Part shown: piece by piece, positions 5,320 through 53,151 of the stretch
Position numbering within the stretch: the stretch's first letter is position 1
Layout: each line of letters begins with the position of its first letter
From: Acidobacteriota bacterium
GTDB taxonomy: Bacteria; Acidobacteriota; Vicinamibacteria; Vicinamibacterales; UBA8438
Direction: 5' to 3'
Length of the DNA: 64,000 nt
Assembly (NCBI GenBank): GCA_002712885.1
Contig: PAUN01000021.1
Span: forward strand, 45,804 to 109,803
Translations under genes and position numbers: made by a program
The notes under the pieces: model-generated
What the model was told of the DNA's origin: nothing
Seen by the model: the letters and a program-made list of their open reading frames with translations, nothing else
Database searches by the model: none

Positions 5320-6471
5320 ATGCTTGCTTGCCAGAAATTCCATTTCATGTTGCCCGAGGGGTTGCACTATCTGAACTGTGCCTTCATGGCGCCGCTCGCG
5401 CGGGCGGTGCGGGCGGCGGGCGTTGTCGGTATCGACCGCCGTGCAACGCCGCACCTGATCCGCCCCCGCGACTTCTTCGAGAAGAGCGACCTGGTCCGGT
5501 GCCTCTTCTCCCGGATCGTCAACGCCCCGGATCCGAACCGCATCGCGATTCTGCCGTCCGTGTCGTATGGCCTGGCCACGGTCGCGCGAAATGTGCACGC
5601 GACATCGGGCGACAACATCGTGGTGCTTGAGGAGCAGTTTCCCAGCAACGTCTACACGTGGCGGCGACTGTGCGCGGACCGAGGTCTCATCCTGCGAACA
5701 GTCCCGCCGCCGCCTCACCAGGACGGCGATCGGGCGGTGGAGTGGAACGCGCGCGTGCTGACCGCCATCAACCGCAGGACCGCTGTCGTAGCGCTCCCAG
5801 AGCTTCACTGGACCGACGGCACGCGGTTCGACCTGGAACGGATCGGACAGCGGGCGCGTGAGTGTCGCGCGCTCTTCGTGGTCGACGGTACGCAGTCGGT
5901 GGGAGCGTTGCCATTCGACATCCAGCGAATTCGACCGGACGCGCTGGTCTGCGCCGGTTACAAGTGGTTGCTCGGTCCCTACTCTGTCGGCTTGGCGTAC
6001 TACGGGCGGGCGTTCGACGACGGCACCCCGTTGGAGGAGGGCTGGATCACCCGACGCGACAGCGAGGCGTTCGCAGACCTGGTTCGGTACCGAGACGACT
6101 ACCAGGGAGCGGCCGTCCGCTATGACGTCGGTGAGCGCTCAAACTTTACGCTGTTGCCGATGCTGGCGTCGGCGCTCGAGTTGGTACTCAAGTGGACGGT
6201 ACCGGCGATTCAGGAGTATTGCCGCAGTCTGACAAGTGAGGTCACCCAGACCTTGCGGGAACGTGGGTATTGGGTTGAAGACGACAACTGGCGCGGCGCG
6301 CACCTGTTCGGCGTACGCCCGGACCAGGCCGGGAACCCGGCCGTCCTTGCCGAACGGCTGCACGCGCGTCACGTCTCGGTCTCGCTGCGGGGAGACGCGA
6401 TTCGGGTTTCCCCCAATCTCTACAACGACGCCGGGGACGTGGAAGCGTTACTTGACGTCCTGGCGGACTAA
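5320..6471 (+). CDS. class V aminotransferase-fold PLP-dependent enzyme (cysteine desulfurase / isopenicillin-N-epimerase-like)
   Basis: N-terminal YLNCAFMAPL and VDGTQSVGALPFD...CAGYKWLLGPYSVG (PLP-Lys region) are typical of the family. The track ORF start at 5035 overlaps the divergent M19 gene, so start moved to ATG 5320 (GTG 5248 also possible). Confidence 0.75.
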   Translation: MLACQKFHFMLPEGLHYLNCAFMAPLARAVRAAGVVGIDRRATPHLIRPRDFFEKSDLVRCLFSRIVNAPDPNRIAILPSVSYGLATVARNVHATSGDNIVVLEEQFPSNVYTWRRLCADRGLILRTVPPPPHQDGDRAVEWNARVLTAINRRTAVVALPELHWTDGTRFDLERIGQRARECRALFVVDGTQSVGALPFDIQRIRPDALVCAGYKWLLGPYSVGLAYYGRAFDDGTPLEEGWITRRDSEAFADLVRYRDDYQGAAVRYDVGERSNFTLLPMLASALELVLKWTVPAIQEYCRSLTSEVTQTLRERGYWVEDDNWRGAHLFGVRPDQAGNPAVLAERLHARHVSVSLRGDAIRVSPNLYNDAGDVEALLDVLAD

Positions 6472-6486
6472 GGACACTGGCCAGGA

Positions 6487-6577
6487 GGTTTTCGGGCGAA
6501 GCGTTTGTCTGACAAGGCGCGAGGAGATAGCAGCCAGGCGGGCTGTGACCGACAAGCTTCGCCGCCAGACCCACACC
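6487..6577 (-). repeat. A-type palindromic intergenic repeat, degenerate copy A1 (tandem with A2)
   Basis: GGTTTTCGGGCGAAGCGTTTGTCTGACAAGGCGCGAGGAG..CAGCCAGGCGGGCTGTGACCGAC.. aligns to A2/A4, but the distal arm has decayed. Confidence 0.7.
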
Positions 6578-6589
6578 ACTCGCAGAACC

Positions 6590-6694
6590 GGTTTCCTGGC
6601 GAGGCGTTCGTCTGGCAAGGCGCGACGAGGGAGCATGCAGGCGGCATGTGACCGAGGAAGCAACGCCGCCAGACAGACGCCTCACCAGGAAACC
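6590..6694 (-). repeat. A-type ~105-bp palindromic intergenic repeat, full copy A2
   Basis: GGTTTCCTGGCGAGGCGTTCGTCTGGC...GCCAGACAGACGCCTCACCAGGAAACC form terminal inverted arms of about 27 bp, with inner hairpin CATGC-AGGCG-GCATG. The last base is shared with the TAG stop of the 6694-7581 gene. Confidence 0.85.
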
Positions 6695-7581
6695 TAGCGC
6701 CAGGGACGCTCGACGACGCGGTCCAGCGGCCGGCGCTCGAGCCGGAACGCACGACGCTCGCGCAGGTCGAACCGGTCGCCGGCTCCGAGGAAATAGAATC
6801 GTCCGCCGGAATCGAGCTGATGCGCGTGGTCGTAGATCGCCACATAACTGCGTCCGATCACCTCGAATTCATCGCCGCGCACCACGATCGCCGTGTTTTC
6901 GTCGAGGCCGATCCCCAGCAGTTCGGGGTGCGCTTCGATCACACTGAGCAGGTCGAACTGCCGATTCCGCCGAAGCAGATGCTGATCGATGGCTGTGTCT
7001 CGCAGGAACCCAAACCCCACCACGTGGTCGCCCATCATGATGGTGTTGGTGGCCGAGTCGCCGCGCGCGAGATATGAACCCAGAATGGTCGCCCCGGCCG
7101 ATGATCCACCAACCACGCCTCCGCGACGCAGGACATCGCGGAGCGCCTCGTGCACCTCGGTGTCGAGATACGCGTCGGCCAGACGCCACTGCCGCCCGCC
7201 AGGAAACCAGACCCCACGCGCACGACGCAGCGGGGACACGAAGGCTTCGCTGTCGGCCACGTCGCGGTCGGTCGTGTGCAACACGACAAGGTCCGTGGCA
7301 CCCGCGTCGCGAAACGCCTGCAACCCCGGGTACGACTGATCGTAGGTCTCGGCACCGCCCGCGGTCGGTATCACGACAATCGGTGAGTCGGGTCCACCGG
7401 CCAGCCGCACAAACCGTTCGAGAATGGCGGGGTCGCGCATCGCGCCCCCGACGACCACCAGGGCCCCGCGGGGCGGACCGACGACCGGACCGCCAGTCTG
7501 CGTGCTCACGCTGGCGGTCACCGACAGGCACACGCCCAGAACGGCCACCATCCACACACTGCTGTGCGCAATCTTGCTCAC
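6694..7581 (-). CDS. cyanophycinase-like serine peptidase (family S51), secreted
   Basis: VWFPGGRQWRL (GGdQ-like) and GGVVGGSSAGATILG (nucleophile Ser motif) match cyanophycinase/S51. Start placed at GTG 7581, with GGGAG Shine-Dalgarno 7 nt upstream, giving signal peptide VSKIAHSSVWMVAVLGVCLSVTASV. Confidence 0.75.
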   Translation of the reverse strand: MSKIAHSSVWMVAVLGVCLSVTASVSTQTGGPVVGPPRGALVVVGGAMRDPAILERFVRLAGGPDSPIVVIPTAGGAETYDQSYPGLQAFRDAGATDLVVLHTTDRDVADSEAFVSPLRRARGVWFPGGRQWRLADAYLDTEVHEALRDVLRRGGVVGGSSAGATILGSYLARGDSATNTIMMGDHVVGFGFLRDTAIDQHLLRRNRQFDLLSVIEAHPELLGIGLDENTAIVVRGDEFEVIGRSYVAIYDHAHQLDSGGRFYFLGAGDRFDLRERRAFRLERRPLDRVVERPWR

Positions 7582-9421: not shown

Positions 9422-10237
9422 GTGCGGACTCGGCAAGCTATTTCCTTGTGTCGCGGAGCCTTGGCGCCAGCCCTCTGGCTCATCGCCGGACTGCTGGTCG
9501 CCGCGCCTGAAGCGGCCGCGCAGATCGCCCCGACCCACCGCATCGTCGCGCGATTCGAGTCCGGATGGCGGCCAGCATCACGGACCTTCGCCGGCACGCG
9601 ATTGTTCACGGCCAATGTGGAGCAGGGGCAATTCGAAGCGGACTACGAGCTCAAGGACGGCGGCGTCGTCGATGGGGGCATCTCATTCCTCCTGTGGCGC
9701 AACCTCGGGATCGGGCTCGACGTGTCCCATTTCCGCACCATCCACGAAGCCCGAATCACCTCCGAAGTGCCGCACCCGTTCTTCTACGATCTGCCACGGA
9801 CGACGACGGGCCGCGCCGGTGGTCTCGAGCGCCAGGAACTGGGCATCCACATCCGCGCGCTCTGGGTGTCTCAGTTCGCTGACTGGCTGGTCGTCTCCGT
9901 CTCAGCCGGTCCCAGCATCATCAGTGCAAAGCAGGACCTGGTCACGGCGGTTCAGCACACCGAGGTGGGGTTTCCGTTCAGCGACCTCATCTTCTCCGGC
10001 CAAACGGTGAGCGCGCAGTCGGAAACGACCACGGGCCTCAACGGCGGCGTCGAAATCGACTCGTTCTTCCTCCACCGACTCCCGTTCCTTCGCAGGTTCG
10101 CCGTGATGGAGCATATCGGCGTGGGTCTGCTGGCACGGTACGTTCGCGGCGTGGTCATGCTTCAAGTCGACGGACAACCGATCGAGATAGACCTCGGAGG
10201 AATGCAGATTACCAGCGGCGTGCGCTTCCGGTTCTAA
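9422..10237 (+). CDS. putative outer-membrane beta-barrel protein
   Basis: Signal peptide (LWLIAGLLVAAPEAAAQ), alternating-hydrophobic strand pattern, C-terminal GVRFRF ending in Phe, and AGGAG 8 nt upstream of GTG 9422. Confidence 0.6.
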   Translation: MRTRQAISLCRGALAPALWLIAGLLVAAPEAAAQIAPTHRIVARFESGWRPASRTFAGTRLFTANVEQGQFEADYELKDGGVVDGGISFLLWRNLGIGLDVSHFRTIHEARITSEVPHPFFYDLPRTTTGRAGGLERQELGIHIRALWVSQFADWLVVSVSAGPSIISAKQDLVTAVQHTEVGFPFSDLIFSGQTVSAQSETTTGLNGGVEIDSFFLHRLPFLRRFAVMEHIGVGLLARYVRGVVMLQVDGQPIEIDLGGMQITSGVRFRF

Positions 10238-10342
10238 GGTTTTCTGACGAGGCGTCCGTCTGGCGGCGTTGCTTCGTCGGTCACAGCCCACCTGGCTGCT
10301 CCCTCCTCACGCCTGACCAGACAGACGTCTCGTCAGAAAACC
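10238..10342 (+). repeat. A-type ~105-bp palindromic intergenic repeat, full copy A3 (opposite genomic orientation to A2/A4)
   Basis: GGTTTTCTGACGAGGCGTCCGTCTGGCGGCGTTGCTTCGTCGGTCACAGCCCACCTGGCTG...CCAGACAGACGTCTCGTCAGAAAACC. It starts at the base immediately after the TAA stop at 10235-10237. Confidence 0.85.
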
Positions 10343-10492
10343 CCCGCGGACGTTTTGCGGCATTGCCAGCCCGTGGACGTCCAGCCTCGAGCACCAACTG
10401 GGCGTCGGCAATGTCGTGTCGTCATGCGTGTTCTCGGAAGACGACGCCACGCACCGGCAACCACCGCGCAGCGCCCACCGACACGTGCTTGC

Positions 10493-20135: not shown

Positions 20136-20400
20136 CTAAGCGAACGGATCCTCGTCGGCCGACGTCCCGTAAATAGAGGGGACCGGCGCGTCGTTCAAGT
20201 GGAGGTACACGCCAAGCTGGGCCCGGTGGTGGATCAGGTGATTCATCACGAAGCTGCGTATGATTGCGGTCCGCGGCATGCTGAACGTGGTGAGCCCCTT
20301 GTGGAGCAACGTCCATGGTTGCATCTCTCCAAGAAGCCGCCTCGCAGCGGCCACGACCAGTCGACTGAATCGGGAGTCCAGTGTATACAAACGGGAGCGG
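20136..20400 (-). pseudogene. DinB-family (DinB/YfiT-like four-helix bundle) C-terminal remnant
   Basis: Only the C-terminal ~85 aa look genuine (...SMPRTAIIRSFVMNHLIHHRAQLGVYLHLNDAPVPSIYG). The rest of the 180-aa track ORF is read through repeat B1 and the 3' end of ggt2, so roughly 70 N-terminal residues of a normal family member are missing. Confidence 0.5.
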
Positions 20401-20401
20401 A

Positions 20402-20460
20402 GCACTCGGGGTCCCCGCAGAGCGGTCGCGTGGGGTTCGGGGCGCAGCCCCGTCTCAGTG
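20402..20460 (-). repeat. B-type intergenic repeat module, copy B1
   Basis: GCACTCGGGGTCCCCGCAGAGCGGTCGCGTGGGGTTCGGGGCGCAGCCCCG is about 90 percent identical to 43926-43970. It ends at the base before the TGA stop of ggt2 (20461). Confidence 0.75.
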
Positions 20461-22173
20461 TCAGAACCCGATAGCCGAGCTTGTTCGCCGTCGATCTTCA
20501 GCCGCCTCCAGCATGTCGTCTTCCGCGTTGTAGAGGATGGCCGACACCGCACCCTGCACACCGATCTCGGCCATGCGGTGGCCGCGCCGTCCGAGCAGCG
20601 CCAGGGTATCCGGCGAGAGCCCCCACCGCTCATACCGTGTCTCGTCCGGCAGCCACTGGTGATGCAACCGGGGCGCATCCACCGCCTCTTGAATGTTCAT
20701 CCCAAAATCGACCACGTTCAGAATCGTCATCAGCACCGTGTTGATGATGGTCCGACCACCGGGGCTGCCGGTGACCATGACCAATTGACCCTCGCGCGCC
20801 ACGATGGTCGGGGTCATGCTGGATAGCATCCGCTTCCCAGGCTCAGCCAGGTTGGGGCCGGTGCCGATCAGCCCCGTCTGGGTCGTCAGCCCGGGGGCCG
20901 CATTGAAGTCGCCCATCTCATTGTTCAGCAGGAAGCCCGCGCCCGGCACGGTGATCTTCGACCCATACCCCTGCTCCAACGTGTAGGTGAGCGACACTGC
21001 GTTGCGCGCGCCATCGACCACCGACAGATGCGTCGTCTCCTCGCTCTCGACCGGCCAGGAGAAGCTGTCAGGTGACGACACCGAGGCCCGGTCGGAATCG
21101 ATGGTCAGCCGGAGCTCGGCGGCGTAGTCCTTCGATATCAATTGATCGATCGGCATGCTGGTGTTGAAGGCCGGGTCGCCCAGATTCTGAGCCCGGTCGG
21201 CGAAGGCCCGCCGCATCGCCTCGATGATGAGATGGATGGTCGCCGCCGACCCGCTGCCGGACGCAGCCAAGTCATAGCCTTCCAGCACATTGAGCATCTG
21301 GATGAGAGCCAGCCCGCCGGAGCTCACCGGCGGCATGGAGATGATGTCGTAACCGCGGTAGGTGCCTGTCATCGGCGCGCGACGCACCGCCCGGTACCCG
21401 GCCAAGTCGGCCTGGGTCATGATGCCGCCGTTGGCCGCCATCTCGGCGGCAAGGAGTTCGGCCGTCTCACCGGTGTAGACCCCGGCCGGTCCCTGAAGCG
21501 CGACCCGTGAGAGTGTCCGCGCCAGATCCGGCTGGCGAAGCGTCTCGCCGACCCGGTAGGGCTGACCCTGGTTCGAAAACTGCGCCACTGACGCGGGGTA
21601 GTCGACCATCCGCGGCAGGACGGCGGCCAATGAGCGAGCCAAAGAGTCCCTCACCACGAACCCTTCGCGCGCCAACGTCATCGCCGGCTCAACCAGACGC
21701 TCCCACGACAGCGACCCGTGTTCTGACCAGGCCTGATGCAATCCCGCCACGGTCCCCGGCACGCCGACGGCCAGATGGCTGTTGTGGTGCACGCGCCGGT
21801 CGTACTCGCCCCCACGCATGAACATCGTGGACGTAGCCGCGGCCGGTGCGGTTTCTCGAAAGTCATACGCCACCGCGTCGCCCACGGCCGGCCGGTAGAC
21901 CAGAAATCCGCCCCCGCCGATATTGCCGGCCGTGGGATAGGTGACCGCCAACGCAAACGCAGTCGCGACCGCCGCGTCCACGGCGTTGCCCCCGTCCCGC
22001 AACACCTGATCGCCGACGCGCGAGGCCAGTGGGTCCTGCGACACCACCATCGCCTGCCGAGCACGGATCGGGCGCGTGCTCCCCACCAGAGGCGTCGGCG
22101 CGAGCGCCACCCACGCGACCGCAGCGGCTCCGACGATGCCGCAGGTGAACGCTCGTTGCTTCCGGATAGTCAT
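20461..22173 (-). CDS. ggt: gamma-glutamyltransferase (paralogue 2, canonical GGT type, secreted)
   Basis: GDQVLRDGGNAVDAAVATAFALAVTYPTAGNIGGGGF, ETTHLSVVDGARNAVSLTYTLEQGYGS (autoprocessing Thr), LLNNEMGDF and GSPGGRTIINTV are present. Start moved to MTIRKQRAF (ATG 22173). Confidence 0.88.
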   Translation of the reverse strand: MTIRKQRAFTCGIVGAAAVAWVALAPTPLVGSTRPIRARQAMVVSQDPLASRVGDQVLRDGGNAVDAAVATAFALAVTYPTAGNIGGGGFLVYRPAVGDAVAYDFRETAPAAATSTMFMRGGEYDRRVHHNSHLAVGVPGTVAGLHQAWSEHGSLSWERLVEPAMTLAREGFVVRDSLARSLAAVLPRMVDYPASVAQFSNQGQPYRVGETLRQPDLARTLSRVALQGPAGVYTGETAELLAAEMAANGGIMTQADLAGYRAVRRAPMTGTYRGYDIISMPPVSSGGLALIQMLNVLEGYDLAASGSGSAATIHLIIEAMRRAFADRAQNLGDPAFNTSMPIDQLISKDYAAELRLTIDSDRASVSSPDSFSWPVESEETTHLSVVDGARNAVSLTYTLEQGYGSKITVPGAGFLLNNEMGDFNAAPGLTTQTGLIGTGPNLAEPGKRMLSSMTPTIVAREGQLVMVTGSPGGRTIINTVLMTILNVVDFGMNIQEAVDAPRLHHQWLPDETRYERWGLSPDTLALLGRRGHRMAEIGVQGAVSAILYNAEDDMLEAAEDRRRTSSAIGF

Positions 22174-22221
22174 GTCGTCATGATCGCATACACTTTTCCA
22201 ACGAATCGAGGAGTACTCTTC

Positions 22222-24351
22222 ATGCTGAACCGCCACACCTGTACCGCGGTCGCCGCACTGGCCGTCATCGCCGTCGCGCTGTCCCCGTTGTCCGCCGGTG
22301 CCCAGAATCGCGGACTGGTGCCGGACGACTTCTACCGCGAGATCGGTGTCGGCGAAGTGGCCATCTCGCCGGACGGCGCACTGGTCGCCTTCACCGTCAC
22401 CACCATCGATGAAGACGCCAATCGGCGGCACCGGGAGATCTGGATGCAGGAGCTCAGTGGCGGGCAACCGTCCGGTGACCCATTTCGGTTTACCGACCCG
22501 ACACGCGAGGCCAGCGCACCCGTCTGGTCACCCGATAGCCGCCTCCTGAGCTTCCAGTCACCGCGTGGCGAGACAGCCAGCGATGCAACTGCGGACAGCA
22601 ACCCCACCTGGTTCGCCCGCGTCACATTCCCGGGTGGCGAGGCTTTTCAGATAGAGGGCGTCGACCGCGCCCCGGTCTGGTCGCCGGACGACCAGTGGAT
22701 CGCCTTCCTCAAACGACCGCACGACGCCACCGATGGTGTGGCCACAGAACGACAGGGCTGGATCGCGCCGGATGCCATCACCAACACGCTGAGTGCCGAG
22801 CGTTTTGACGGGCGCGTCATCACCACCATGACCTACAAGCGCGACGGCACACTGACGCTGTTGCCGCATCCGTCGACGCCCGCCAAGCGGCAGCTCTTTA
22901 TCGTGCCGGCGGCAGGCGGACCGGCGGTCCAGCGCACAGACCTGGCGTTCGACGTCGGCGAGCTCGTCTGGTCGCCGGACGCCCAGCGACTGTATTTCAC
23001 TGGCGACGCGCTCGAGGATGACGAGTACAGCGACGAGCTCACCACCGACATCTACGTCATCGACCGCGAAACGGGCGACCCATACACTCTGACCTCGAAC
23101 CCAGGCGACGAGTTGTCGCCACACGTCTCCCCGGACGGCACCGCGCTCACGTTCCTGCACACGCGCGCTCGAGGCGAGGAGACCGACGTCCGGGTGGTCG
23201 ACCTGACCGCCGACGGCAGGGTGCGTGGGCTCCCGCGGACCCTGACGTCCGACTGGCCGTTCGTGCCCGGCGCGCCGACCTGGGCACCCACCGGCGATGC
23301 GGTCCGCTTTCTCGCGGGCGTCAGGGGGAACCGGCATCTGTACGAAGTGACCGCCACCGGTGATCTCATTCGCCAGGTCACGAGTGGAGACCGAGACGTG
23401 CAATCGCTCTCGGCCTCGAGCGACGGTCTGGTCATGGCCTACAGTGCGTCTGACGTCGTGACCCCGGCCGAAGTGTTCGTCAACCGACGCGACGGCAGCG
23501 GCCAACGCCCCGTCACCTCGTTCAACGAGGAGTGGCTCGCCGAGGTCAGCCTCCAACCGGCCGAAAAGCTCGCCTGGACGCTCACGGACGGCAGCCAGGT
23601 CGAAGGCTGGCTCATCAAACCTGTCGGGTACGAAGCGGGCCGGCAGTACCCCATGATTCTGAAGATCCACGGCGGCCCGTACGGTGCGTATCGCAACACG
23701 TTCTTCAGGACGTTCCACGTGCTGTCGAACGCCGGCTTCTTCGTGTTGTACACGAACCCGCGGGGGTCGACCGGGTACGGCCACGACTTCATGTACGCCA
23801 CGACGCCCGGCTGGGGTGAGATCGACGCGGAGGACTATCTGGCCGGTGTCGACATCGCACTCGAGGCGTATCCCGACATCGACCCGGATCGAATCGGCGT
23901 CTCGGGCGGCAGCTATGGTGGCTTCATGACCAACTGGCTCACCGCCACGACAAACCGATTCGCCGCCGCCGTCACCAGCCGTTCGATCGCCGACTGGACC
24001 AGCCTGTATGGCTCAACCGACGCCCAGTCGTTGTTGGACTTCGCGTTCGAGGGCCCGCCATGGGAGCAGCCAGAACGATACGACCGGCTGTCGCCGATCA
24101 CGTATGTCGAGAACGTCACCGCCCCGACGCTCGTTATCCACAGCGAGAACGACTACCGCACCCCCATCGGAGACGGCGAGAAGTGGTTCATGGCCCTGAA
24201 GAAGCGACAGATTCCGACCGAACTGGTACGGTATCCCCGGTCGAGTCATGGATTGTCGAGATCAGGTGAGCCCTGGCTATTGGTGGACCGATTGGAGCGG
24301 ATGCGGAGCTGGTTCACGCACTGGCTGATCGAGCCAGCCGAGCCACGGTGA
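22222..24351 (+). CDS. S9 family serine peptidase (prolyl oligopeptidase / acylaminoacyl-peptidase type) with N-terminal beta-propeller
   Basis: Repeated WSPD motifs (propeller), GVSGGSYGGFMTNW (GxSxGG nucleophile), and a C-terminal D...H region (ENDYRTP, SSHGL). Signal peptide follows ATG 22222. Confidence 0.85.
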   Translation: MLNRHTCTAVAALAVIAVALSPLSAGAQNRGLVPDDFYREIGVGEVAISPDGALVAFTVTTIDEDANRRHREIWMQELSGGQPSGDPFRFTDPTREASAPVWSPDSRLLSFQSPRGETASDATADSNPTWFARVTFPGGEAFQIEGVDRAPVWSPDDQWIAFLKRPHDATDGVATERQGWIAPDAITNTLSAERFDGRVITTMTYKRDGTLTLLPHPSTPAKRQLFIVPAAGGPAVQRTDLAFDVGELVWSPDAQRLYFTGDALEDDEYSDELTTDIYVIDRETGDPYTLTSNPGDELSPHVSPDGTALTFLHTRARGEETDVRVVDLTADGRVRGLPRTLTSDWPFVPGAPTWAPTGDAVRFLAGVRGNRHLYEVTATGDLIRQVTSGDRDVQSLSASSDGLVMAYSASDVVTPAEVFVNRRDGSGQRPVTSFNEEWLAEVSLQPAEKLAWTLTDGSQVEGWLIKPVGYEAGRQYPMILKIHGGPYGAYRNTFFRTFHVLSNAGFFVLYTNPRGSTGYGHDFMYATTPGWGEIDAEDYLAGVDIALEAYPDIDPDRIGVSGGSYGGFMTNWLTATTNRFAAAVTSRSIADWTSLYGSTDAQSLLDFAFEGPPWEQPERYDRLSPITYVENVTAPTLVIHSENDYRTPIGDGEKWFMALKKRQIPTELVRYPRSSHGLSRSGEPWLLVDRLERMRSWFTHWLIEPAEPR

Positions 24352-29141: not shown

Positions 29142-29206
29142 TGACGACACGACCTCTTCAATGCCCGTTTGATGCCAGAGGCTTCACGTCGACGCGAGAC
29201 GCCCTA

Positions 29207-29223
29207 GCGGGGACCCCGAGTGC
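29207..29223 (+). repeat. B-type module fragment, inverted (B4)
   Basis: GCGGGGACCCCGAGTGC is the exact reverse complement of the first 17 nt of B1 (GCACTCGGGGTCCCCGC). Confidence 0.6.
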
Positions 29224-29290
29224 CCCACACCGCGTCCGCGAGGCTGACGAGGGAAAGCAACGAAGCCAAACGCTCCCCGGACCCACCCCC

Positions 29291-29394
29291 GTTTTCCTGG
29301 CGAGGCGTTCGTCTGGCAAAGCGCGAGGAGGGAGCAGACAGGCGGTCTGTGACCGACGAAGCAACGCCGCCAGACGGACGCCTCGCCAGGAAAA

Positions 29395-29395
<1 letters not shown>
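29291..29395 (-). repeat. A-type ~105-bp palindromic intergenic repeat, full copy A4
   Basis: GTTTTCCTGGCGAGGCGTTCGTCTGGC...GCCAGACGGACGCCTCGCCAGGAAAAC, with inner hairpin CAGAC-AGGCG-GTCTG. The last base is shared with the TAG stop of ettA. Confidence 0.85.
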
Positions 29396-31071
<1,676 letters not shown>

Positions 31072-41485: not shown

Positions 41486-42136
41486 TTGAGTCGAGTACGA
41501 AGGACGATTGCGGCGGTCGCTCTCGGCGGCTGGGTCTTGGCCGGCCCGGGGCGGCCGTCGTACGCGCAGCCGGACCCGCGCGTCGCCCACACGGTCGCGG
41601 TCGAGACATTCCGCAACGTGTCCGGCGGCGCCGATGACGCATGGATCGGTGACGGCCTCGCGGAGGCGGTGGCGGCGGACTTGAGCGGCCAGGTGAGCCG
41701 ATTTCGCGACGCACGCTGGGTCGTGCGGGGCGCCTACCAGCGATTGGGCAACCGTGTCCGGGTGACCGCCGAGCTCGTCGACGCCGTCTCCGGGAATCGG
41801 ATCGATTCGGTGAAAGTCGACGGCAGCTTCGCCGATCTGTTCGGGCTCCAGGATGCGCTAGCCACGGCGATCGCCACCCGGTTGTCGGCGCAGACCGAGG
41901 GTGCCAATATCCTCTGCGTGGACCGTGTCGAGGAGAGCGCGCACGAGACGGTGCGCATCATCGAGGACGAGGACGGCGTAGCAACGCCGCCAGACGGACG
42001 CCTCGCCAAGGAACCTAGTGGACGCCGCGGCCCATTTGGAGCATGGAGGGTTCAGCGCCGAGGCGCCGGATGGCGGTTTCCCACATTTCGGTCGACTGGG
42101 TGTCGAAGATCAGGTCGAGTTCCACATCGGCAATAA
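41486..42136 (+). CDS. secreted protein with TolB-N-terminal-like / FlgO-like domain; 3' end aberrant
   Basis: Signal peptide followed by VAVETFRNVSGGADDAWIGDGLAEAVAADLS...VVRGAYQRLGNRVRVTAELVDAVSGN, the IAVLPF-N-S...GSV...RV-a-L-d pattern of this domain. The last ~70 codons read through repeat A5 and antisense to yqgE. Confidence 0.55.
   Translation: MSRVRRTIAAVALGGWVLAGPGRPSYAQPDPRVAHTVAVETFRNVSGGADDAWIGDGLAEAVAADLSGQVSRFRDARWVVRGAYQRLGNRVRVTAELVDAVSGNRIDSVKVDGSFADLFGLQDALATAIATRLSAQTEGANILCVDRVEESAHETVRIIEDEDGVATPPDGRLAKEPSGRRGPFGAWRVQRRGAGWRFPTFRSTGCRRSGRVPHRQ
41981..42015 (-). repeat. A-type repeat, stop-proximal half only (A5)
   Basis: GCAACGCCGCCAGACGGACGCCTCGCCAAGGAACC matches the stop-proximal arm of A4 at about 90 percent identity. 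The last base is shared with the TAG of yqgE. Confidence 0.75.
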
Positions 42137-42578
42137 GCCACGACGAGGACGACAGCTCTTCATCGAGCTGGCCGGCACCCCAGCCGGCATAGCCCGTCAA
42201 CAGCCGCGTACGGTTCGGTGGCTGGTCGCTCAGCAACCGCCGAAGAAGCTCTGGCGACGTCGACAGATAGAGCCCGTCGCACACCTCAACCGATTCCGCC
42301 GCGTCCGGCTCCCGTCCCATCAGTATCCAACCGCGCTCCGGCTCGACCGGGCCGCCGATCCAGAGCTGTAGTCCGTTGTCGCTGTCGACCGGAGGGGTGA
42401 GCCGCACCACCGACGAGGCTGGCGTATCGGTCTGACGATTCAGAACCAGCCCAAACGCTCCGTCAGCGCCGTGTTCGCACAACAGCACCACGGTCTGTTT
42501 GAAATTAGGGTCGCAGAGCTGCGGCATCGAGAGCAGCAGCGTCGGCGCCAACGAAGTCCCGTTTCCAACCTTGGTCAT
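42015..42578 (-). CDS. yqgE: YqgE/AlgH family protein (UPF0301)
   Basis: LLLSMPQLCDPNFKQTVVLLCEHGADGAFGLVLNR, LWIGGPVEPERGWIL and GYAGWGAGQLDEEL are family hallmarks. Start at MTKVGNG (42578). Confidence 0.85.
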   Translation of the reverse strand: MTKVGNGTSLAPTLLLSMPQLCDPNFKQTVVLLCEHGADGAFGLVLNRQTDTPASSVVRLTPPVDSDNGLQLWIGGPVEPERGWILMGREPDAAESVEVCDGLYLSTSPELLRRLLSDQPPNRTRLLTGYAGWGAGQLDEELSSSSWLIADVELDLIFDTQSTEMWETAIRRLGAEPSMLQMGRGVH

Positions 42579-42709
42579 GGTCGTGTCGTGGGCTGACCAG
42601 GTCGCTCCCGAGGGCCGCCGTCGCCGCACGGTCCCATCTTAACAGATCGCGCTGGCCAGTGTAGAAGAGCGCGCGAGAGGGACGAGCTCAGGGCCCTGGC
42701 CCCGGGGCC

Positions 42710-43765: not shown

Positions 43766-43925
43766 GGTAAGACCCGAACTCTAGTGCCCTACAACCGTGG
43801 AAGCAACGCCAGGCGCCGGCAAGGTCAACGAGCACTCGGCGTCCGAGGCGGGTGTCTCCTGAGAAAATGCATGATGGGAAGGCGAAGGCTGCGCGACAAT
43901 GCGCGCCCTGTGGCCGCGGAGTGAG

Positions 43926-43986
43926 GCACTTGGGGTCCCTGCGGAGCGGTCGCGTGGGGTTCGGGGCGCAACACCGCCAGGCGACC
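43926..43986 (-). repeat. B-type intergenic repeat module, copy B2, fused to a shortened A-like terminus
   Basis: GCACTTGGGGTCCCTGCGGAGCGGTCGCGTGGGGTTCGGGGCGCA is followed by ACACCGCCAGGCGACC. The last base is shared with the TAG stop of the TonB-dependent receptor. Confidence 0.75.
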
Positions 43987-46900
43987 TAAAAGGAGTAGCG
44001 GAGGCCGAATTGCATTTCTCTGGCATTCTGGGCGCTAAAGATGCGACCGAAGTTCGGGGTCCCGAAGATCCGATTCGGCACATCGAAGTTCGCCCGATTT
44101 AAGAGGTTGAAGATCTCCCAGCGCACCTCAAAGCGATCATCGTCGCCGATCGGCCAGTCCTTCTGGATCGACAGATCGACCACGGCCAGGCCTGGCGCGA
44201 ACACGCTGTTGCGCAGCGCAGACCCGAACATGAATAGGTCCGGCTGCGTGAAGACAGCGGTGTTGAACCACTGCTCTGCCGAGCGCTGGCTTGCCGGCAG
44301 GGTCGGATCGCCGATCTGGTTTGGACGCTGGGCCGGACCAGAACCGATGTTTGCGACATCCTGGCCGAGATTGACGGTAAACGGCGCTCCCGACTGCAAC
44401 GTGGCGATGACATTGACCCGCCACCCGGCCCCCAGGGCTTGGGCCGCCCCGCCAGCGCCTTCGAAGAACGGCAAGTGGTAGCTTCCGCTGGCCACGAATT
44501 GGTGTCGGTGATGGAAGCTCGAGAGCGCCTCCTCCCCAGGAAAGATGTTGCGAACGTCCTGCGGCACATTCGCTTCGAATGCCGTGGCCCCCGGACTCGA
44601 CGCGTCGTCGCGAGACTGCGACAACGTATAGGCGGTGTTGAACGAGAAGCGCCCGTTGAACCGCCGCTCGGCCTTGAGCGTCACAGCGTGGTAGATCGAT
44701 GTGCCATCGAATCGGATCGCACGAACCGCGCTCAGCTGCGGAATCGGTCGCCGCTCGTTTATCGGACCGGGCCCCGGCACCGGCACGTTGCGAATCGTCG
44801 AATTGTCGGCCCCAATGGTGTACGACCCCATATAGGCGACTTCAAACATCGTCTGCGGCAATGCCTCGATCTGGAGTCCGCCGCTCCAGGTCTGGGTGTA
44901 TTCGACCTGGTAGTTGTTGTCCATGATCGTCCCGCCAAGGTTGCCAGCGGCATCGCCGGCGAGGATGTCATTGGTCCGCAAGGTGGGCACCAACTGGTCC
45001 GACGGGGCATCGACCTGTTTCAATGAAAAAAACGGCAAGTTCCGCGTGAACGCCGTCTGCACGCTGTAGGCCCATTGGTTGAGGAATACGCCGTAGCCGC
45101 CGCGAATGACGGTTGGCCGCTCGCGGTCAAGGGACAGAGCGAAACCAAGTCGTGGCGCCAGCCGCAGCTTGCTTGGTCGCAGCAGACTCCGGTCCCAGCC
45201 GGCTTCGGCGGACGTCACCCAGGGAATCGGGATCAACGGCAGCATCGCCTCCGCCTCCGGCGAGATGTTGCCCGCGTCGTCGCTGGCGATGACGTACCGC
45301 CCGCCCGGCACCGAAAAATCGATCGTCGACAACCGGTTGTCGACATCCTTCATGTGTGAGTTGTACTCGTAGCGCACACCATAATTGATGGACAGGTTGT
45401 CTCTCGCGCGCCAGTCGTCCTGTGCATACAGGTGCAGCCACGTCGTGCGCGCATTCTCGTCACCACCCCCAACCCCGGACCGGGCCGACGTCGGGAAACC
45501 GAGTAGAAAGTCGCCCAGCGCGTTGCCGGTCCATTGGCCGGTGTAGCTGAACGCGCCACGTGCGGTGTCGGCGTTGACAGGACGGAAACGCAGGTGAAAC
45601 AGATAGCCGCCGAACTTCAGCCGATGAGCACCACGGTCGATCAGAAAGTTGTCATAGAGCTCAAAGTGTTCGTTGTCTCGCGACACGAAGGTGGTGGGGT
45701 CTCCCATCGTGCTGAACAGCCCGGCAGTTGAAATCTGCGGAAACCCGGTGTCGCGCGGATTAGTGCTCACCCCCAGCAGGCCGACCTGAGTAGCGAAGTC
45801 AGAGCCGACATTGACGCTCCTTTGCCCTCCATTCACCCTCATGAAACCGAACCGAAGCTCGTTGAGCATGTTGACGCCGATCGTGCGCGTATGACTGATC
45901 CCCAGGTTGCGAGCCGTGGTGTCGAGCGTGCGCCCGAAGCCGGGCACCAGCGTTTCTTGCAACACGCTGGTGCCGAACGGCTGCACCTCGTCGGCATCGA
46001 AGCTGCTAAACCGGACAAACAGTTGATCCCGCTCAGTCAGCCGATGGTCGACGCGCAGACTGAACTGGTGAACGTCCTTGTCTTGCGACTCGGCCGACGT
46101 CAAGTTCTGGAACTGTCCCTCGCCGTTGGGCAACGGCACGTTCCCCAGAAACGTCAGGGCGAGCGGGTCGAGCCGGTCGGCGGGAATCTGGTTTCCGGCA
46201 AACGGCGTGCACGCTCCGGTCGCGCGGTTGATGGTGCTGGGATCACAAATCGGATCCCAGCCTGAGAAGTCACCGCCGCGCGTGGCCGCGTCAGGCACCG
46301 AGAACGTACTGGTCAGCGAGCGCCGCGTATCCTGGCGCTCGTAGCTCAGAAAGAAGAACGTCCGATCCGTGACGATCGGTCCGCCCAGTGACCCGCCGTA
46401 TTGCTGCTGGTCGAGGGGGGGCACCGGCTGGCTCCGGTCGTCGAAGAAATTGTACGCATCGAATCGGTCGTCGCGGATGAATTCGAAGACGCTGCCGTGG
46501 AATCGATTCGCCCCCGCCTTTGTCGCGACGTTGATGAGTGCCGACGCCTTCCCACCAAATTCCGCTGGGTACTGCGACTTCTGAATCTTGAACTCCTGGA
46601 TGGAATCGATCGAGGGATTGATGACCAGGTTGTTGAACAACTCGTCGGTCACTTTGAAGCCGTCGAGCAGATAGATGTTGTGGCCGGCTCGCTGCCCGCC
46701 GACATTGGGCAGCGGTCCCGCTTGCTGCAACGCCCCGCCCCTCGTCCCGCCGGGCGGGATGACCACTGCGTCACTGAGCTGAGCCAACTGGAGAAACTGA
46801 CGGCCGTTCAACGGGATCTGCTCGACCTCCCGCGTCTCAATGACATCGCTGACCTCCGCGGTGGTCGTCTGCAACAAGGGCGTGGACACCCTGACGGTCA

Positions 46901-47255
46901 CTTCCTCGCTCATGGCCCCGAGCGAGAGAGTAAATTCCAACTGAATGGTGCGGCCGAGTTCGAGCACGACGCCGGTTTGTGTCGCACGCCGGAAACCGGG
47001 CAACTCGGCGGTCACGTCCCAGTTGCCGGTCTGGAGGGCTGGTAGAAAGAAGCGTCCCTCGGCGTCGGTCACCCGCTCAATCGCGAAGCCGCTAGTCGGA
47101 TGACTCGCGCGCACCGTCGCACCCGGAAGGACGCCGCCGCTGGTGTCGACGACCAGACCGCTGATCTCGCCGGTGTTCGTCTGCGCGAAGACTCCGGCCA
47201 TCGCGGTCGCCAGCCAGATCAGACAGACAACTCCCGTTACTCGTTCCGTCCGCAT
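43986..47255 (-). CDS. TonB-dependent outer-membrane receptor with N-terminal carboxypeptidase-regulatory-like domain
   Basis: GEISGLVVDTSGGVLPGATVR (CarboxypepD_reg), a plug region (IPLNGRQFLQLAQL), a long beta-barrel, and C-terminal ...QFGLRYSF. Start at MRTERVTG (47255), followed by a signal peptide. Confidence 0.85.
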   Translation of the reverse strand: MRTERVTGVVCLIWLATAMAGVFAQTNTGEISGLVVDTSGGVLPGATVRASHPTSGFAIERVTDAEGRFFLPALQTGNWDVTAELPGFRRATQTGVVLELGRTIQLEFTLSLGAMSEEVTVRVSTPLLQTTTAEVSDVIETREVEQIPLNGRQFLQLAQLSDAVVIPPGGTRGGALQQAGPLPNVGGQRAGHNIYLLDGFKVTDELFNNLVINPSIDSIQEFKIQKSQYPAEFGGKASALINVATKAGANRFHGSVFEFIRDDRFDAYNFFDDRSQPVPPLDQQQYGGSLGGPIVTDRTFFFLSYERQDTRRSLTSTFSVPDAATRGGDFSGWDPICDPSTINRATGACTPFAGNQIPADRLDPLALTFLGNVPLPNGEGQFQNLTSAESQDKDVHQFSLRVDHRLTERDQLFVRFSSFDADEVQPFGTSVLQETLVPGFGRTLDTTARNLGISHTRTIGVNMLNELRFGFMRVNGGQRSVNVGSDFATQVGLLGVSTNPRDTGFPQISTAGLFSTMGDPTTFVSRDNEHFELYDNFLIDRGAHRLKFGGYLFHLRFRPVNADTARGAFSYTGQWTGNALGDFLLGFPTSARSGVGGGDENARTTWLHLYAQDDWRARDNLSINYGVRYEYNSHMKDVDNRLSTIDFSVPGGRYVIASDDAGNISPEAEAMLPLIPIPWVTSAEAGWDRSLLRPSKLRLAPRLGFALSLDRERPTVIRGGYGVFLNQWAYSVQTAFTRNLPFFSLKQVDAPSDQLVPTLRTNDILAGDAAGNLGGTIMDNNYQVEYTQTWSGGLQIEALPQTMFEVAYMGSYTIGADNSTIRNVPVPGPGPINERRPIPQLSAVRAIRFDGTSIYHAVTLKAERRFNGRFSFNTAYTLSQSRDDASSPGATAFEANVPQDVRNIFPGEEALSSFHHRHQFVASGSYHLPFFEGAGGAAQALGAGWRVNVIATLQSGAPFTVNLGQDVANIGSGPAQRPNQIGDPTLPASQRSAEQWFNTAVFTQPDLFMFGSALRNSVFAPGLAVVDLSIQKDWPIGDDDRFEVRWEIFNLLNRANFDVPNRIFGTPNFGRIFSAQNAREMQFGLRYSF

Positions 47256-47367
47256 TCCGACCCCTAAACAACTTCCATAACCAACAAACCCGACCGTGAC
47301 GAACGGGAAGCAATCGCCCCAGGTCGTCAACTCCCCATTGTATTGCGGCAGTGACCCACGCCGCGGC

Positions 47368-47640
47368 TCAACCGTCGGACACTGAACGGCGCCACCACGA
47401 TTGCATGCGCCTGGCTGCCTCCGGCCCCGCGATGACCGCGCCGCCCCAGAACGCGACCTCGGCGACGATGACGACACTGGTGGCCACGACGCCGCGTGCG
47501 GCGACGCTCAAGGGCAGAAACGGCACCCCCAGCAGCACGAGCCACAGAGGCAGCGACCCTGCCATGAGCACCACCCCGACCCGGGTCCATCGGCGGCGCG
47601 TGCTGGCAGCGGCGTCACTACATGATCCGTTCTGGGTCAT
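47368..47640 (-). CDS. small two-TM membrane protein
   Basis: MTQNGSC...WTRVGVVLMAGSLPLWLVLLGVPFLPL...VVATSVVIVAEVAFWGGAVIAG has two hydrophobic helices. It lies upstream of, and co-directional with, the TonB receptor. Confidence 0.45.
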   Translation of the reverse strand: MTQNGSCSDAAASTRRRWTRVGVVLMAGSLPLWLVLLGVPFLPLSVAARGVVATSVVIVAEVAFWGGAVIAGPEAARRMQSWWRRSVSDG

Positions 47641-52082: not shown

Positions 52083-52203
52083 ATTATCGCATAGCTACGA
52101 GTGGAGCCGCCGGGCGGGCGCCTGGGCTAGCGAAGTGCCTGAACCCAGCACCCAGGGAAAAGCGGGCGCGTGGCTGATCCCGGACCCGGCGGTAAAACTC
52201 CGC

Positions 52204-52234
52204 GGCCGCGTGGGATTCGGGGCGCAGCCCCGTC
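52204..52234 (-). repeat. B-type module, partial copy B3
   Basis: GGCCGCGTGGGATTCGGGGCGCAGCCCCGTC matches the core of B1. Confidence 0.65.
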
Positions 52235-52240
52235 AAAGGA

Positions 52241-52302
52241 ATACCCAGGCGGGATATGACCGACGCAGCAACGCCGCCACATGGACGCCCCGCCTGGAGA
52301 CC
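52241..52302 (-). repeat. A-type repeat, stop-proximal half (A6, diverged)
   Basis: ATACCCAGGCGGGATATGACCGACGCAGCAACGCCGCCACATGGACGCCCCGCCTGGAGACC aligns with the inner hairpin plus stop-proximal arm of A4. It ends in the TAG of the 52302-53117 gene. Confidence 0.7.
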
Positions 52303-53117: not shown

Positions 53118-53151
53118 GGGCGTAGTGTGCCGATGTGATGAGCGGTCGCGG

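Follow-up and report, generated by a model that had tools for sequence, protein, structure and literature searches.

A CTAG-flanked hairpin repeat at stop codons of a marine acidobacterial lineage is probably a non-autonomous mobile element

Palindromes that bear a TAG at one end and supply stop codons have been in the literature since 2013, and are represented by the GTAG-tagged REP and REPIN elements, including SMAG of Stenotrophomonas (Di Nocera, De Gregorio & Rocco 2013; PMC3733652). MITEPsy1 (IS5-family ISPsy2) inserts at CTAG or YTAA with a 4-nt duplication (PMC3189936), and RUP is mobilised at TA by an IS630 element, IS630-Spn1, with Correia/NEMIS being comparable (PMC2229807). For E. 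coli REPs located no more than 15 nt from a stop codon, a function has been shown, according to the summary of Liang, Rudd & Deutscher (2015) given in PMC12306157. Here, we describe a repeat that lies against stop codons in an uncultured marine acidobacterial lineage. It is a new family of the kind described by Di Nocera et al (PMC3733652), TAG-tagged palindromes that supply stops, and it is probably a non-autonomous mobile element of the MITE or tagged-REP kind that inserts at CTAG.

The repeat is a small non-coding unit composed of a 105-bp hairpin core, bounded by inverted arms of 26–27 nt that are 89–96% complementary, and a tail of ~25 nt, giving an inserted unit of ~130 bp; the arms, the small size and the lack of coding capacity are those of a MITE. 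The element ends read GGTTTYC...GRAAACC, and its terminal sequences, GGTTTYCYGRCGAGG...CAGCAACCTG, are the bounds that any autonomous partner would share. The family consensus of the 3' tail is CCCTCGGACSTTTTTCAGCAACCTG, followed by CTAG. The whole unit has CTA(G) at both ends; in the hairpin core, only one of the two ends bears an unpaired xTAG, and this one-sided tag is CTAG, where the GTAG REPs have GTAG. The long form has cTA to its left (~65%) and CTAG to its right (70–85% per base), and c-T-A precedes the first G in ~60% of copies. In copies without a recognisable tail, the right arm is not followed by TA (T occupies +1 in 6 of 96), and a simple model of terminal inverted repeats plus TA duplication thus holds for the long form alone. 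In this assembly (3.83 Mb, designated G000; the labels G001–G014 denote the related MAGs and genomes compared) we identified 96 full and ~130 partial copies of this extragenic palindrome, and marine Vicinamibacterales MAGs carry ~100 full copies per genome. The copies are dispersed over most contigs and adjoin housekeeping genes. Nearest-neighbour identity among them reaches at most 97% (median, 91%), which gives no sign of current activity; the copies look old.

Within the window, i.e., the whole 64-kb stretch of DNA analysed, the arm motif occurs 10 times where 0.24 occurrences would be expected. The features identified are the following.

10235–10237, plus strand: TAA stop codon of a conserved OMP-like ORF (9461–10237); the element begins at the next base.
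10238–10342, plus strand: hairpin core in the canonical orientation, 105 bp, with 26-nt inverted arms GGTTTTCTGACGAGGCGTCCGTCTGG / CCAGACAGACGTCTCGTCAGAAAACC; nhmmer score 102.6.
10343–10369, plus strand: degenerate 3' tail of the unit, CCCGCGGACGTTTTGCGGCATTGCCAG.
10370–10453, plus strand: further repeat debris, in which the start of a tail-like sequence recurs (CCCGTGGACGT) alongside a small hairpin module, GTCGTC/GACGAC.
6590–6694, minus strand: full hairpin copy, beginning with the G of the TAG stop codon (6694–6696, minus strand) of the S51 peptidase gene 6694–7581.
6472–6580, minus strand: older degenerate tandem copy (6488–6580) and a 15-nt short tail, which abuts the TAA (6469–6471) of the convergent aminotransferase gene 5347–6471.
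29291–29395, minus strand: full hairpin copy; its first G is also that of the TAG which ends the ABC-F (EttA-type) gene 29395–31071.
41974–42015, minus strand: left-arm half copy, kept against the TAG stop of the AlgH/YqgE gene 42015–42629.
43971–43986, minus strand: left-arm relic of reduced length, GGTCGCCTGGCGGTGTTGC, next to the TAG stop of gene 43986–47477, which encodes a 1163-aa OMP beta-barrel receptor.
52231–52302, minus strand: partial copy (model positions 1–72), against the TAG stop of ORF 52302–53345.

The initial annotation had listed six contacts between this repeat, its type A, and upstream stop codons; all six were confirmed at the correct coordinates with the same arm toward the gene. 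The further instance claimed for module B1 at ggt2 had to be set aside, as B1 belongs to a different repeat family. A B-type repeat also follows the relic at 43971–43986. The interior of the core at 10238–10342 is asymmetric and contains a small apical hairpin, and its RNA folds at −70 kcal/mol on the sense strand and −84 kcal/mol on the antisense strand. The debris at 10370–10453 is missing in G005 along with the element. For annotation purposes, ORFs called across the repeats are spurious and the adjoining gene ends are real.

The association with upstream stops was borne out genome-wide. In G000, 54 of the 96 full copies have, at −2 to +3 nt of their left end, the stop codon of a co-oriented gene, compared with a mean of 1.4 and a maximum of 5 contacts per 96 copies under random intergenic placement; a stop is found at the right end of the hairpin in 4 copies and at the end of the 25-nt tail in 13. 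This pattern was replicated in 78 copies from other MAGs, with stop contacts at the left end in 50, at the right end in 1 and at the tail in 4. Across 137 non-redundant loci, contact was restricted to the left end at 69 and to the right end or tail at 11, involved both sides at 11, and at 46 the unit stood away from any stop with the same CTA/CTAG flanks. The polarity is therefore strong (69:11 loci) yet not absolute: the claim of an invariable orientation is correct for the window but cannot be generalised, since tandem gene pairs split 25:19 and the copy at the ettA stop of G005 is inverted. Based on 3226 approximate gene calls from a home-made hexamer model, the spacers holding the 96 copies were convergent in 43 cases, tandem in 44 and divergent in 5, and those of the genome numbered 513, 2144 and 487, respectively; convergent spacers thus make up 16% of the total, yet hold 43 of 96 copies. 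The repeat is preferentially located at 3' ends, in convergent and unidirectional spacers, as are the GTAG REPs.

The stop codon at the 80 contact loci was TAG in 74, TGA in 4 and TAA in 2 (TAG excess, p = 4e-20). The initial annotation was right that most contacts use TAG and wrong in expecting TAG to be the minority stop, as the genome uses TAG 1411, TGA 1421 and TAA 394 times (44, 44 and 12%). Separately, the TAG share of stops is 44% in the genus and 29–39% in sister genera, and a link between the element and this unusually high TAG usage is possible. The base before TAG, scored at 69 contacts, was C in 52 (75%, against a C baseline of 36%), G in 9, T in 5 and A in 3. CTAG is found at 0.18 of its expected frequency, with 2218 sites distributed over stops (501), intergenic DNA (750) and CDS (967). 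The element is near only 7 of the 967 CDS-internal sites. Stop codons represent ~40% of non-coding CTAGs, whereas ~68% of copies touch a stop, which indicates that some extra retention or preference is at work.

We compared ~20 candidate empty sites at 78–92% identity, of which 2 were clean; many sister-genome comparisons in this range proved to involve copies reduced by deletion or spacers that had been remodelled, and were rejected. At site 44, G005 reads ...GCACG-CTAG-AACATCG, where G000 reads ...CACGG-TA-[GG..hairpin+tail..CCTG]-CTAG-AACATCG. At site 74, G002 reads GGTGCC-TAG-ATTTTTC, where G000 reads GGTGCC-TAG-[TTTTCC..hairpin+tail..CACATG]-CTAT-ATTTTTC. In both empty alleles the CTAG is single and already serves as the stop codon of the gene. 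The long form is accordingly flanked by a duplication of TA or CTAG that is single in the empty allele, as seen in these two sites and in the flank profiles; this duplication is absent at the right arm of tail-less copies, and the junctions fit insertion 3' of CTAG by an element ending in CTAG equally well. The ettA stop was hit independently in G005, where a copy of another subfamily lies in the opposite orientation. Partly eroded copies form a decay series of collapsed hairpins, tail-only remnants and 7–8-nt left stubs, one of which arose via CGGCG direct repeats.

Orthologues of the OMP-like ORF in six relatives end at the same final residue (...RF), with five TAG stops and one TGA, and the unit is missing at the orthologous site in G005, G001, G006, G004, G010 and G014. 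In G008, the S51 orthologue lacks the element, and its stop is a TGA at the unchanged position. Comparison of C-termini with element-lacking orthologues, as the initial annotation had suggested, thus found the stop position unchanged at six loci: OMP (in the six genomes), S51 and sites 9-left, 18, 21 and 24. The evidence at site 13 is less clear, with a 2-nt indel upstream in the alignment. Three comparisons revealed a TGA where G000 has TAG, in relatives without a full copy: G008 (S51), G005 (site 21) and G002 (site 9-left, with a right-arm remnant still present). Replacement of a native codon plus TGA was observed in only one case, site 71, where the G002 orthologue has one extra codon and TGA, and G000 has TAG and the element. 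A target consisting of TA only would require additional changes at these three comparisons and at site 71.

Of the explanations offered by the initial annotation, a mobile element that targets TA-containing stop codons fits best, given the empty sites 44 and 74, the independent hit at ettA, and the presence of TGA at 4 of 80 contacts against 44% of stops in the genome. From these patterns we infer a role for selection, as well as the transposition chemistry and the enzyme considered below. The element would integrate at the palindrome CTAG, or minimally TA, after which (C)TA(G) would stand at both of its ends. With G as the first base of the unit, an element entering at the TA of either a TAA stop or a "...C TAG" stop would restore TAG and leave the protein unaltered. 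The strong avoidance of CTAG, together with the stop-codon share of non-coding sites, would make stops a supply of targets, and the element would sit on TAG stops because it inserts at the rare CTAG. Selection would remove insertions within genes or promoter regions, so that survivors would accumulate on stop codons, most of all where two genes converge. The hairpin may subsequently be eroded by slippage deletions that tend to spare the stop-codon junction, which would result in half copies and stubs at gene ends. Preference for an avoided CTAG combined with purifying selection would in this way place more than half of the copies exactly on stop codons. This explanation accounts for a striking regularity in the lineage and provides a quantified case of target preference yielding a functional-looking pattern.

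The same positions might instead reflect a primarily selected 3'-UTR module whose function holds it at the stop in one orientation; it could stabilise the 3' end of the mRNA, provide a processing site, or tune termination as a roadblock close to the stop, as has been suggested for E. coli REPs. Enrichment at gene 3' ends, depletion in divergent spacers, the very stable hairpin (−70 to −84 kcal/mol, z −5.6 to −8.7) and the covariation of paired positions among copies would all suit such a module, and so would two features of the statistics: stop contacts exceed the prediction from CTAG supply, and the 69:11 bias of the hairpin end over the tail end is unpredicted by random-orientation insertion into a palindromic target. 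There is also precedent, in that ribosomes stall at REPs lying no more than 15 nt from a stop, and mRNA upstream of REPs is stabilised by them, as summarised in PMC12306157. Nevertheless, we regard this reading as rather unlikely. A selected 3'-UTR structure should follow TGA as often as TAG, since each represents 44% of stops, but TGA stands at 4 of 80 contact loci; the preference is for CTAG, beyond a mere stop; at 46 of 137 loci, identically flanked units occur away from stops; both clean empty sites are plain insertions at CTAG; orthologues do well without the element; and arm covariation is equally expected from the subfamily descent of a mobile element. The hairpin is, moreover, weaker on the strand of the upstream gene, where C.A mismatches outnumber G.T mismatches 370 to 151. 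Mismatches compatible with G.U pairing therefore favour the antisense strand, the opposite of what selection on sense RNA predicts, and the ratio is the same in copies at and away from stops. A scan for intrinsic (Rho-independent) terminators flagged no element: the stem ends in GAAAACC with no run of U, and the T5 of the tail lies 10–15 nt downstream. A search of the 64-kb window against Rfam returned no match at the gathering score. A selected 3'-UTR structure, also raised by the initial annotation, is thus neither needed nor sufficient, and leaves the TAG/CTAG specificity unaccounted for. The third proposal of that annotation, that the element carries its own TAG or CTAG and routinely overwrites native gene ends so that contact stops are element-derived, is in our judgement improbable, although part of it stands, in that the unit carries or recreates CTAG at both ends. 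REP termini have been described as "providing" TAG stops (Di Nocera et al, PMC3733652), and both site 71 and the three comparisons with TGA in a relative point the same way. However, TAG was already present in the empty alleles of sites 44, 74, 18 and 24 and of the OMP-like ORF in five relatives, with site 13 a weaker case; and the stop stands at one and the same position in almost every orthologue comparison, which random insertion within genes would not produce, since it would bring TAG into frame only one time in three. It is similarly a long shot that the element, through insertion at gene ends or their overwriting, converts stops to TAG genome-wide and is retained in one orientation, tuning termination or mRNA decay at UAG. 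The confinement of C.A mismatches to the sense RNA, the higher TAG share of the genus compared with its sister genera, and the 3–4 orthologue comparisons in which TGA in a relative corresponds to TAG plus element here, are the observations from which this idea stems; if true, stop-codon usage would have been remodelled by a mobile repeat that had itself turned into a regulatory module tied to stops.

A different variant of the mobile-element explanation, in which only the chemistry changes, has the unit moved by a single-strand HUH/Y1 transposase (RAYT- or IS200/IS605-like) that inserts it 3' of the CTAG tag, making it a giant REP/REPIN instead of a DDE-type MITE with target duplication. We consider this possible but doubtful. 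An xTAG left unpaired at one end of a hairpin core is the defining anatomy of GTAG REPs, whose genomic distribution is likewise matched (PMC3733652), and the strand-asymmetric mismatches are suggestive of a single-strand intermediate. Strong Y1 matches (E < 1e-30) were identified in five element-bearing relatives (G001, G002, G004, G010 and G012). On the other hand, G003 is without a Y1 gene, and G005 has only a weak Y1-like gene, the product of which gave no tblastn match or orthologue in G000. In G000, neither PF01797 (Y1/IS200-RAYT) nor PF13358 (IS630 DDE) had a match, absence from a MAG being no proof. A cognate Y1 (RAYT) gene flanked by the repeats was found neither in G000 nor in the relatives, and the Y1 and IS630-type loci of the relatives showed no element-like ends in their 1.5-kb flanks (nhmmer; motif with no more than 4 mismatches). 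The PF13358/IS630-type search likewise returned no full-length IS in G000 or the relatives with ends in common with the element; the transposase search as a whole covered the Y1 and IS630 DDE families. The tag is also CTAG rather than GTAG (G in 9 of 69 contacts), the core measures 105 nt against 20–40 nt for REPs, and the junction sequences are indistinguishable from a TA or CTAG duplication. A replication-strand bias of the IS608 type was rejected: orientation showed no link to local GC skew in copies away from stops (17:16), unlike IS608-type elements, and at stops the ratio of 31:15 is near the 57% of genes co-oriented with the skew.

Integron attC sites resemble the repeat in being imperfect palindromes of 60–140 bp placed directly after the stop of a cassette ORF, with fixed polarity and strand-specific folding. 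This candidate was rejected, as GGTTTYC/GRAAACC ends do not fit RYYYAAC...GTTRRRY and the copies lie dispersed beside housekeeping genes instead of forming an array. With the E. coli REPs of shown function, as these are summarised in PMC12306157, the repeat has in common a stable hairpin that starts inside the footprint of the terminating ribosome, making an effect on termination or mRNA decay plausible here; unlike in those REPs, the TAG/CTAG specificity points to an insertion preference.

Among the CTAG/TA MITEs, MITEPsy1, RUP and Correia/NEMIS are similar in size (~100–155 bp), in their terminal inverted repeats of 18–27 nt and in being non-coding. As in these elements, a hairpin is formed by the entire unit, both ends carry CTAG or TA, and the target is single in empty alleles. 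In contrast, the inverted arms here bound the core alone, with an unpaired tail beyond the right arm; TA is missing on the right of most copies that have no tail, and the Y1 and IS630 searches revealed no IS with matching ends. More than half of the copies lie exactly on a stop, a property that we did not find reported for these MITEs (PMC3189936, PMC2229807).

The repeat differs from the GTAG REPs, with their 20–40 nt and GTAG tag, in its 105-nt hairpin with 26–27-bp arms, its CTAG tag and its 25-nt tail ending in a second CTAG, as well as in its host, an uncultured marine Vicinamibacterales lineage (Acidobacteriota); no RAYT gene, repeat-flanked or otherwise, was found in this assembly. Nevertheless, both are extragenic palindromes of high copy number in which one end carries an unpaired xTAG tetranucleotide, both lie mostly between convergent and unidirectional genes, adjoining the 3' end, and in both the TAG of the tag is often the stop codon of the flanking ORF, with copies occurring as singles, dimers and clusters.

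The A-type repeat is a hairpin unit whose focal copy (positions 10238–10342, 105 bp) is bounded by outer inverted repeats of 26 nt, GGTTTTCTGACGAGGCGTCCGTCTGG ... CCAGACAGACGTCTCGTCAGAAAACC. The interior of this unit is asymmetric, giving it a definable orientation, and its first base lies directly 3' of the TAA (10235–10237) of ORF 9461–10237. Many copies are long forms that continue on the right side for ~25 nt (consensus CCCTCGGACSTTTTTCAGCAACCTG) and then CTAG; tails of 9–15 nt are also present. The window contains 10 occurrences of the arm motif compared with 0.24 expected, and an Rfam search of the window gave no match. The initial annotation had placed further copies against the stop codons of upstream genes, and these contacts were borne out at every position:

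6590–6694, copy against the stop of the S51 peptidase gene
29291–29395, copy against the stop of the ABC-F/EttA gene
41974–42015, half copy against the AlgH/YqgE stop
43971–43986, shortened arm against the stop of the gene for an 1163-aa OMP beta-barrel receptor
52231–52302, partial copy against the stop of ORF 52302–53345

The contact at ggt2 (TGA at 20461), which had been listed with them, involves a repeat of the other family (B type). Pfam supports the relevant window genes; the OMP-like ORFs 9461–10237 and 52302–53345 are without a family match. In the tandem array at 6487–6694 the stop-proximal copy is better preserved than the distal one (100.5 bits vs 67.3 bits), as repeated insertion at one stop-codon CTAG, with older copies pushed outward, would produce.

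A profile search with nhmmer of G000, the assembly that holds the window (3.83 Mb, 82 contigs, 64.8% G+C), identified 226 matches, 96 of them full length. Gene calls came from an in-house hexamer model, which predicted 3226 genes at 86% coverage. Since these calls contain errors, such as the choice of plus-strand ORF 21736–24351 over the GGT gene at 20461–22467 on the minus strand (Pfam 7.6e-171), all contact counts are approximate.

Stop-codon contacts of full-length copies (left end, the arm towards the upstream stop; approximate gene calls)
G000, 96 full copies: left-end stop (−2 to +3 nt), 54; hairpin right-end stop, 4; tail-end stop (21–32 nt out), 13
Other MAGs (99 loci), 78 full copies: left-end stop, 50; hairpin right-end stop, 1; tail-end stop, 4

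Random placement in non-coding DNA yielded 1.4 contacts per 96 copies and at most 5 in 200 trials; given the 54 observed in G000, the contact pattern is real and far beyond chance. Once orthologous and duplicated loci were merged, 137 loci comprised 69 with a left contact only, 11 with a right or tail contact only, 11 with both and 46 with neither. Neither distance nor orientation relative to stops is random, but the fixed polarity initially proposed holds as a strong bias (69:11) with exceptions. Among tandem gene pairs, 25 units are canonical and 19 reversed, and in the reversed ones the upstream gene's stop often adjoins the opposite end; the ettA orthologue in G005, a related MAG, has at the same stop a copy that belongs to another subfamily and is oriented the opposite way. 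Orientation by replication strand was considered and rejected, as orientation is not linked to local GC skew. Convergent spacers make up 16% of spacers but contain 45% of copies, and the distal CTAG of the tail coincides with stops of convergent genes, 22–28 nt from the hairpin; divergent spacers hold 5% of copies. This distribution is consistent with insertions in promoters and 5' regions being selected against. Two contig pairs of G000 (contamination 5.58% in the genome table) share identical copies with identical flanks (C7:7250-7355 and C60:18839-18944; C14:960-1076 and C40:8167-8283); they probably arose by duplication during assembly or binning and were merged for the locus statistics.

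TAG does prevail at the contacts (74 TAG, 4 TGA and 2 TAA loci, p = 4e-20), but it is not the minority stop that had been expected: G000 uses TAG 1411, TGA 1421 and TAA 394 times, with the same picture in the best-scoring genes. These shares (44%, 44% and 12%) are unusual at 65% G+C; in sister genera TAG makes up 29–39% of stops (80–120 kb sampled in each, regions L162–L181 of G008, G011, G013 and G028). The tetranucleotide CTAG is strongly avoided in G000 (2218 sites, observed/expected 0.18; 0.06–0.11 in sister genera). Its sites fall in coding sequence (967), between genes (750) and over stop codons (501), so that ~40% of non-coding CTAGs are stop codons. At 52 of 69 contacts a C precedes TAG, vs a 36% baseline, which points to CTAG, not merely TA, as the preferred site. 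At ~68%, the share of copies at stops is above this 40% supply, indicating some additional preference or retention.

The flanks of 53 full long forms carry the same motif, with C-T-A on the left in 33, 34 and 36 copies, followed by the element's GG, and C-T-A-G on the right in 45, 40, 37 and 37. When the joined flanks of 76 numbered G000 sites were searched against the two closest genomes and junction-spanning matches aligned, clean empty alleles were found at two sites:

Site 44 (C65:69357), empty in G005: ...GCACG-CTAG-AACATCG
Site 44, filled in G000: ...CACGG-TA-[GGTTTTCC...hairpin...tail...GACCTG]-CTAG-AACATCG
Site 74 (C18:655), empty in G002: GGTGCC-TAG-ATTTTTC
Site 74, filled in G000: GGTGCC-TAG-[TTTTCC...hairpin...tail...CACATG]-CTAT-ATTTTTC

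At both, hairpin and tail were inserted as one unit, the empty allele has a single CTAG already serving as a gene's stop codon, and the filled allele has (C)TA(G/T) at both ends. Most remaining comparisons represent decay: collapsed or internally deleted hairpins (sites 5, 53 and 66), tails without hairpin (sites 12 and 22), and 7–8-nt left stubs straight after TAG (sites 6 and 37), one of which is accounted for by CGGCG direct repeats.

Other repeats share these positions. Palindromic repeats such as CCTAGGCGCGCACNTGCGCGCCTAG sit inserted at the terminal TA/CTAG of the tail; the same palindrome, itself flanked by CTAG, precedes the B-type module (...GGGGCGCAGCCCCGAACCCCACGCGACCGC...), which is often joined to A-type ends (window 29150–29290, 43900–43970, 52100–52230 and 20400–20452; many contigs). 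This suggests that several repeat families have CTAG as a common target and become nested in one another. Further families likewise begin directly behind stop codons: genome-wide there are 22 cases of TAG+TGTCC, 19 of TAG+CAGCC and 8 of TAA+GGACA, and a ~45-nt hairpin with ends AGTGTCC...GGACACT occupies in G005 (L036) the site of an A-type copy in G000 (C35:61457). Within the A-type family, several G000 copies contain an apical insertion of a G+C-rich mini-hairpin (CCCCGCCCGNCCGGGCGGGG, ~20 nt), and another subfamily has part of the left interior replaced by CGTAAAGGGCGGACGTCGCGGCATTGACTCAGCGGGGTCAC (variation listed for C63:23105, C11:67857, C12:44957, C21:14276, C5:5937, C4:38048 and C75:22944).

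Three explanations had been put forward: a structure selected in the 3' UTR, a mobile element that targets TA-containing stops, and an element whose own CTAG replaces gene ends. A selected structure could draw on the hairpin being very stable on both strands, but of the two it is the sense hairpin, which the upstream gene's transcript would include, that is less stable (−70 vs −84 kcal/mol at the focal copy). The outer stems of 174 copies contain 370 C.A mismatches, G.U on the antisense strand, vs 151 G.T, concentrated at positions 8, 18–20 and 22. The weaker sense hairpin and this bias argue against selection in the sense 3' UTR; the ratio is alike for copies touching and not touching a stop, and the element has no U-tract terminator. 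A 3'-UTR role is possible only as a secondary effect. At stem pairs 8/98, 18/88, 19/87, 20/86 and 22/84 a left C faces a right A in 49–69 copies each and the reverse almost never; at position 18, C.A occurs in 69 copies vs 8 with Watson-Crick C-G. The one-sided mismatch may be a favoured state rather than decay. The strand asymmetry is suggestive of single-strand biology or of a trait passed down from master copies. More speculatively, the 69:11 bias might reflect selection against reversed copies as better nuclease substrates, since only that orientation puts a near-perfect hairpin into mRNA.

Replacement of gene ends gains from CTAG at both ends of the element and from site 71, the only replaced end, where G002 has one extra codon and TGA vs TAG plus element in G000. 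It is opposed by element-free orthologues with unchanged stop positions: S51 peptidase (G008, TGA), sites 18 (G005, TAG), 21 (G005, TGA) and 24 (G002, TAG), and site 9-left (G002, TGA), where only a right-arm remnant is present. G002 also ends in TAG at site 13, a weaker case with a 2-nt indel just upstream in the alignment. The focal OMP gene of G000 has TAA, the element and 111 nt of further repeat debris; six relatives without the element end at the same last residue, five with ...TTC TAG and one with TGA. Insertion of a mobile element at TA-containing stops is the best supported of the three and probably correct, with elements of the replacement model included. A unit that starts with G and enters ...C-TA-G (or TA-A) would leave the protein untouched, because that G would restore TAG. 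Together, the CTAG target, stop supply, TAG restoration and spacer selection account for most of the pattern.

Every one of the six sister genomes in the genus has copies, as do some of the family's other genera. An exact core-motif search found carriers among MAGs labelled Vicinamibacterales, Vicinamibacteria or Acidobacteria, with one labelled Chloroflexi as the sole exception; isolate names of several point to marine samples. In G000 the family appears to be old or dormant, with copies ~9% diverged from their nearest neighbour and at most 97% identical. We identified no Y1 (PF01797) or IS630-type (PF13358) transposases in G000, and such loci in relatives have flanks without element ends.

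Comparable elements have been described. REP super-families carry an unpaired GTAG as a tag at one end, and tyrosine-transposase genes lying between long inverted repeats occur in bacteria including the acidobacterium Koribacter (Di Nocera et al, PMC3733652). MITEPsy1 targets CTAG or YTAA and generates a 4-nt duplication (PMC3189936), RUP is linked with IS630 and with TA as target, and hairpins of Correia/NEMIS serve as substrates of RNase III (PMC2229807). REPs ≤15 nt from a stop have been reported to stall ribosomes (PMC12306157). In the MAG assemblies at hand, the A-type repeat was found paired with the defining enzyme of neither class; its 26-nt arms and the CTAG at either end are MITE-like, its one-sided tag and genomic distribution REP-like, and it thus combines features of both. 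We class it as a new family within an already known kind of element, and its contact with stop codons is what a target or tag containing TAG is known to bring about.
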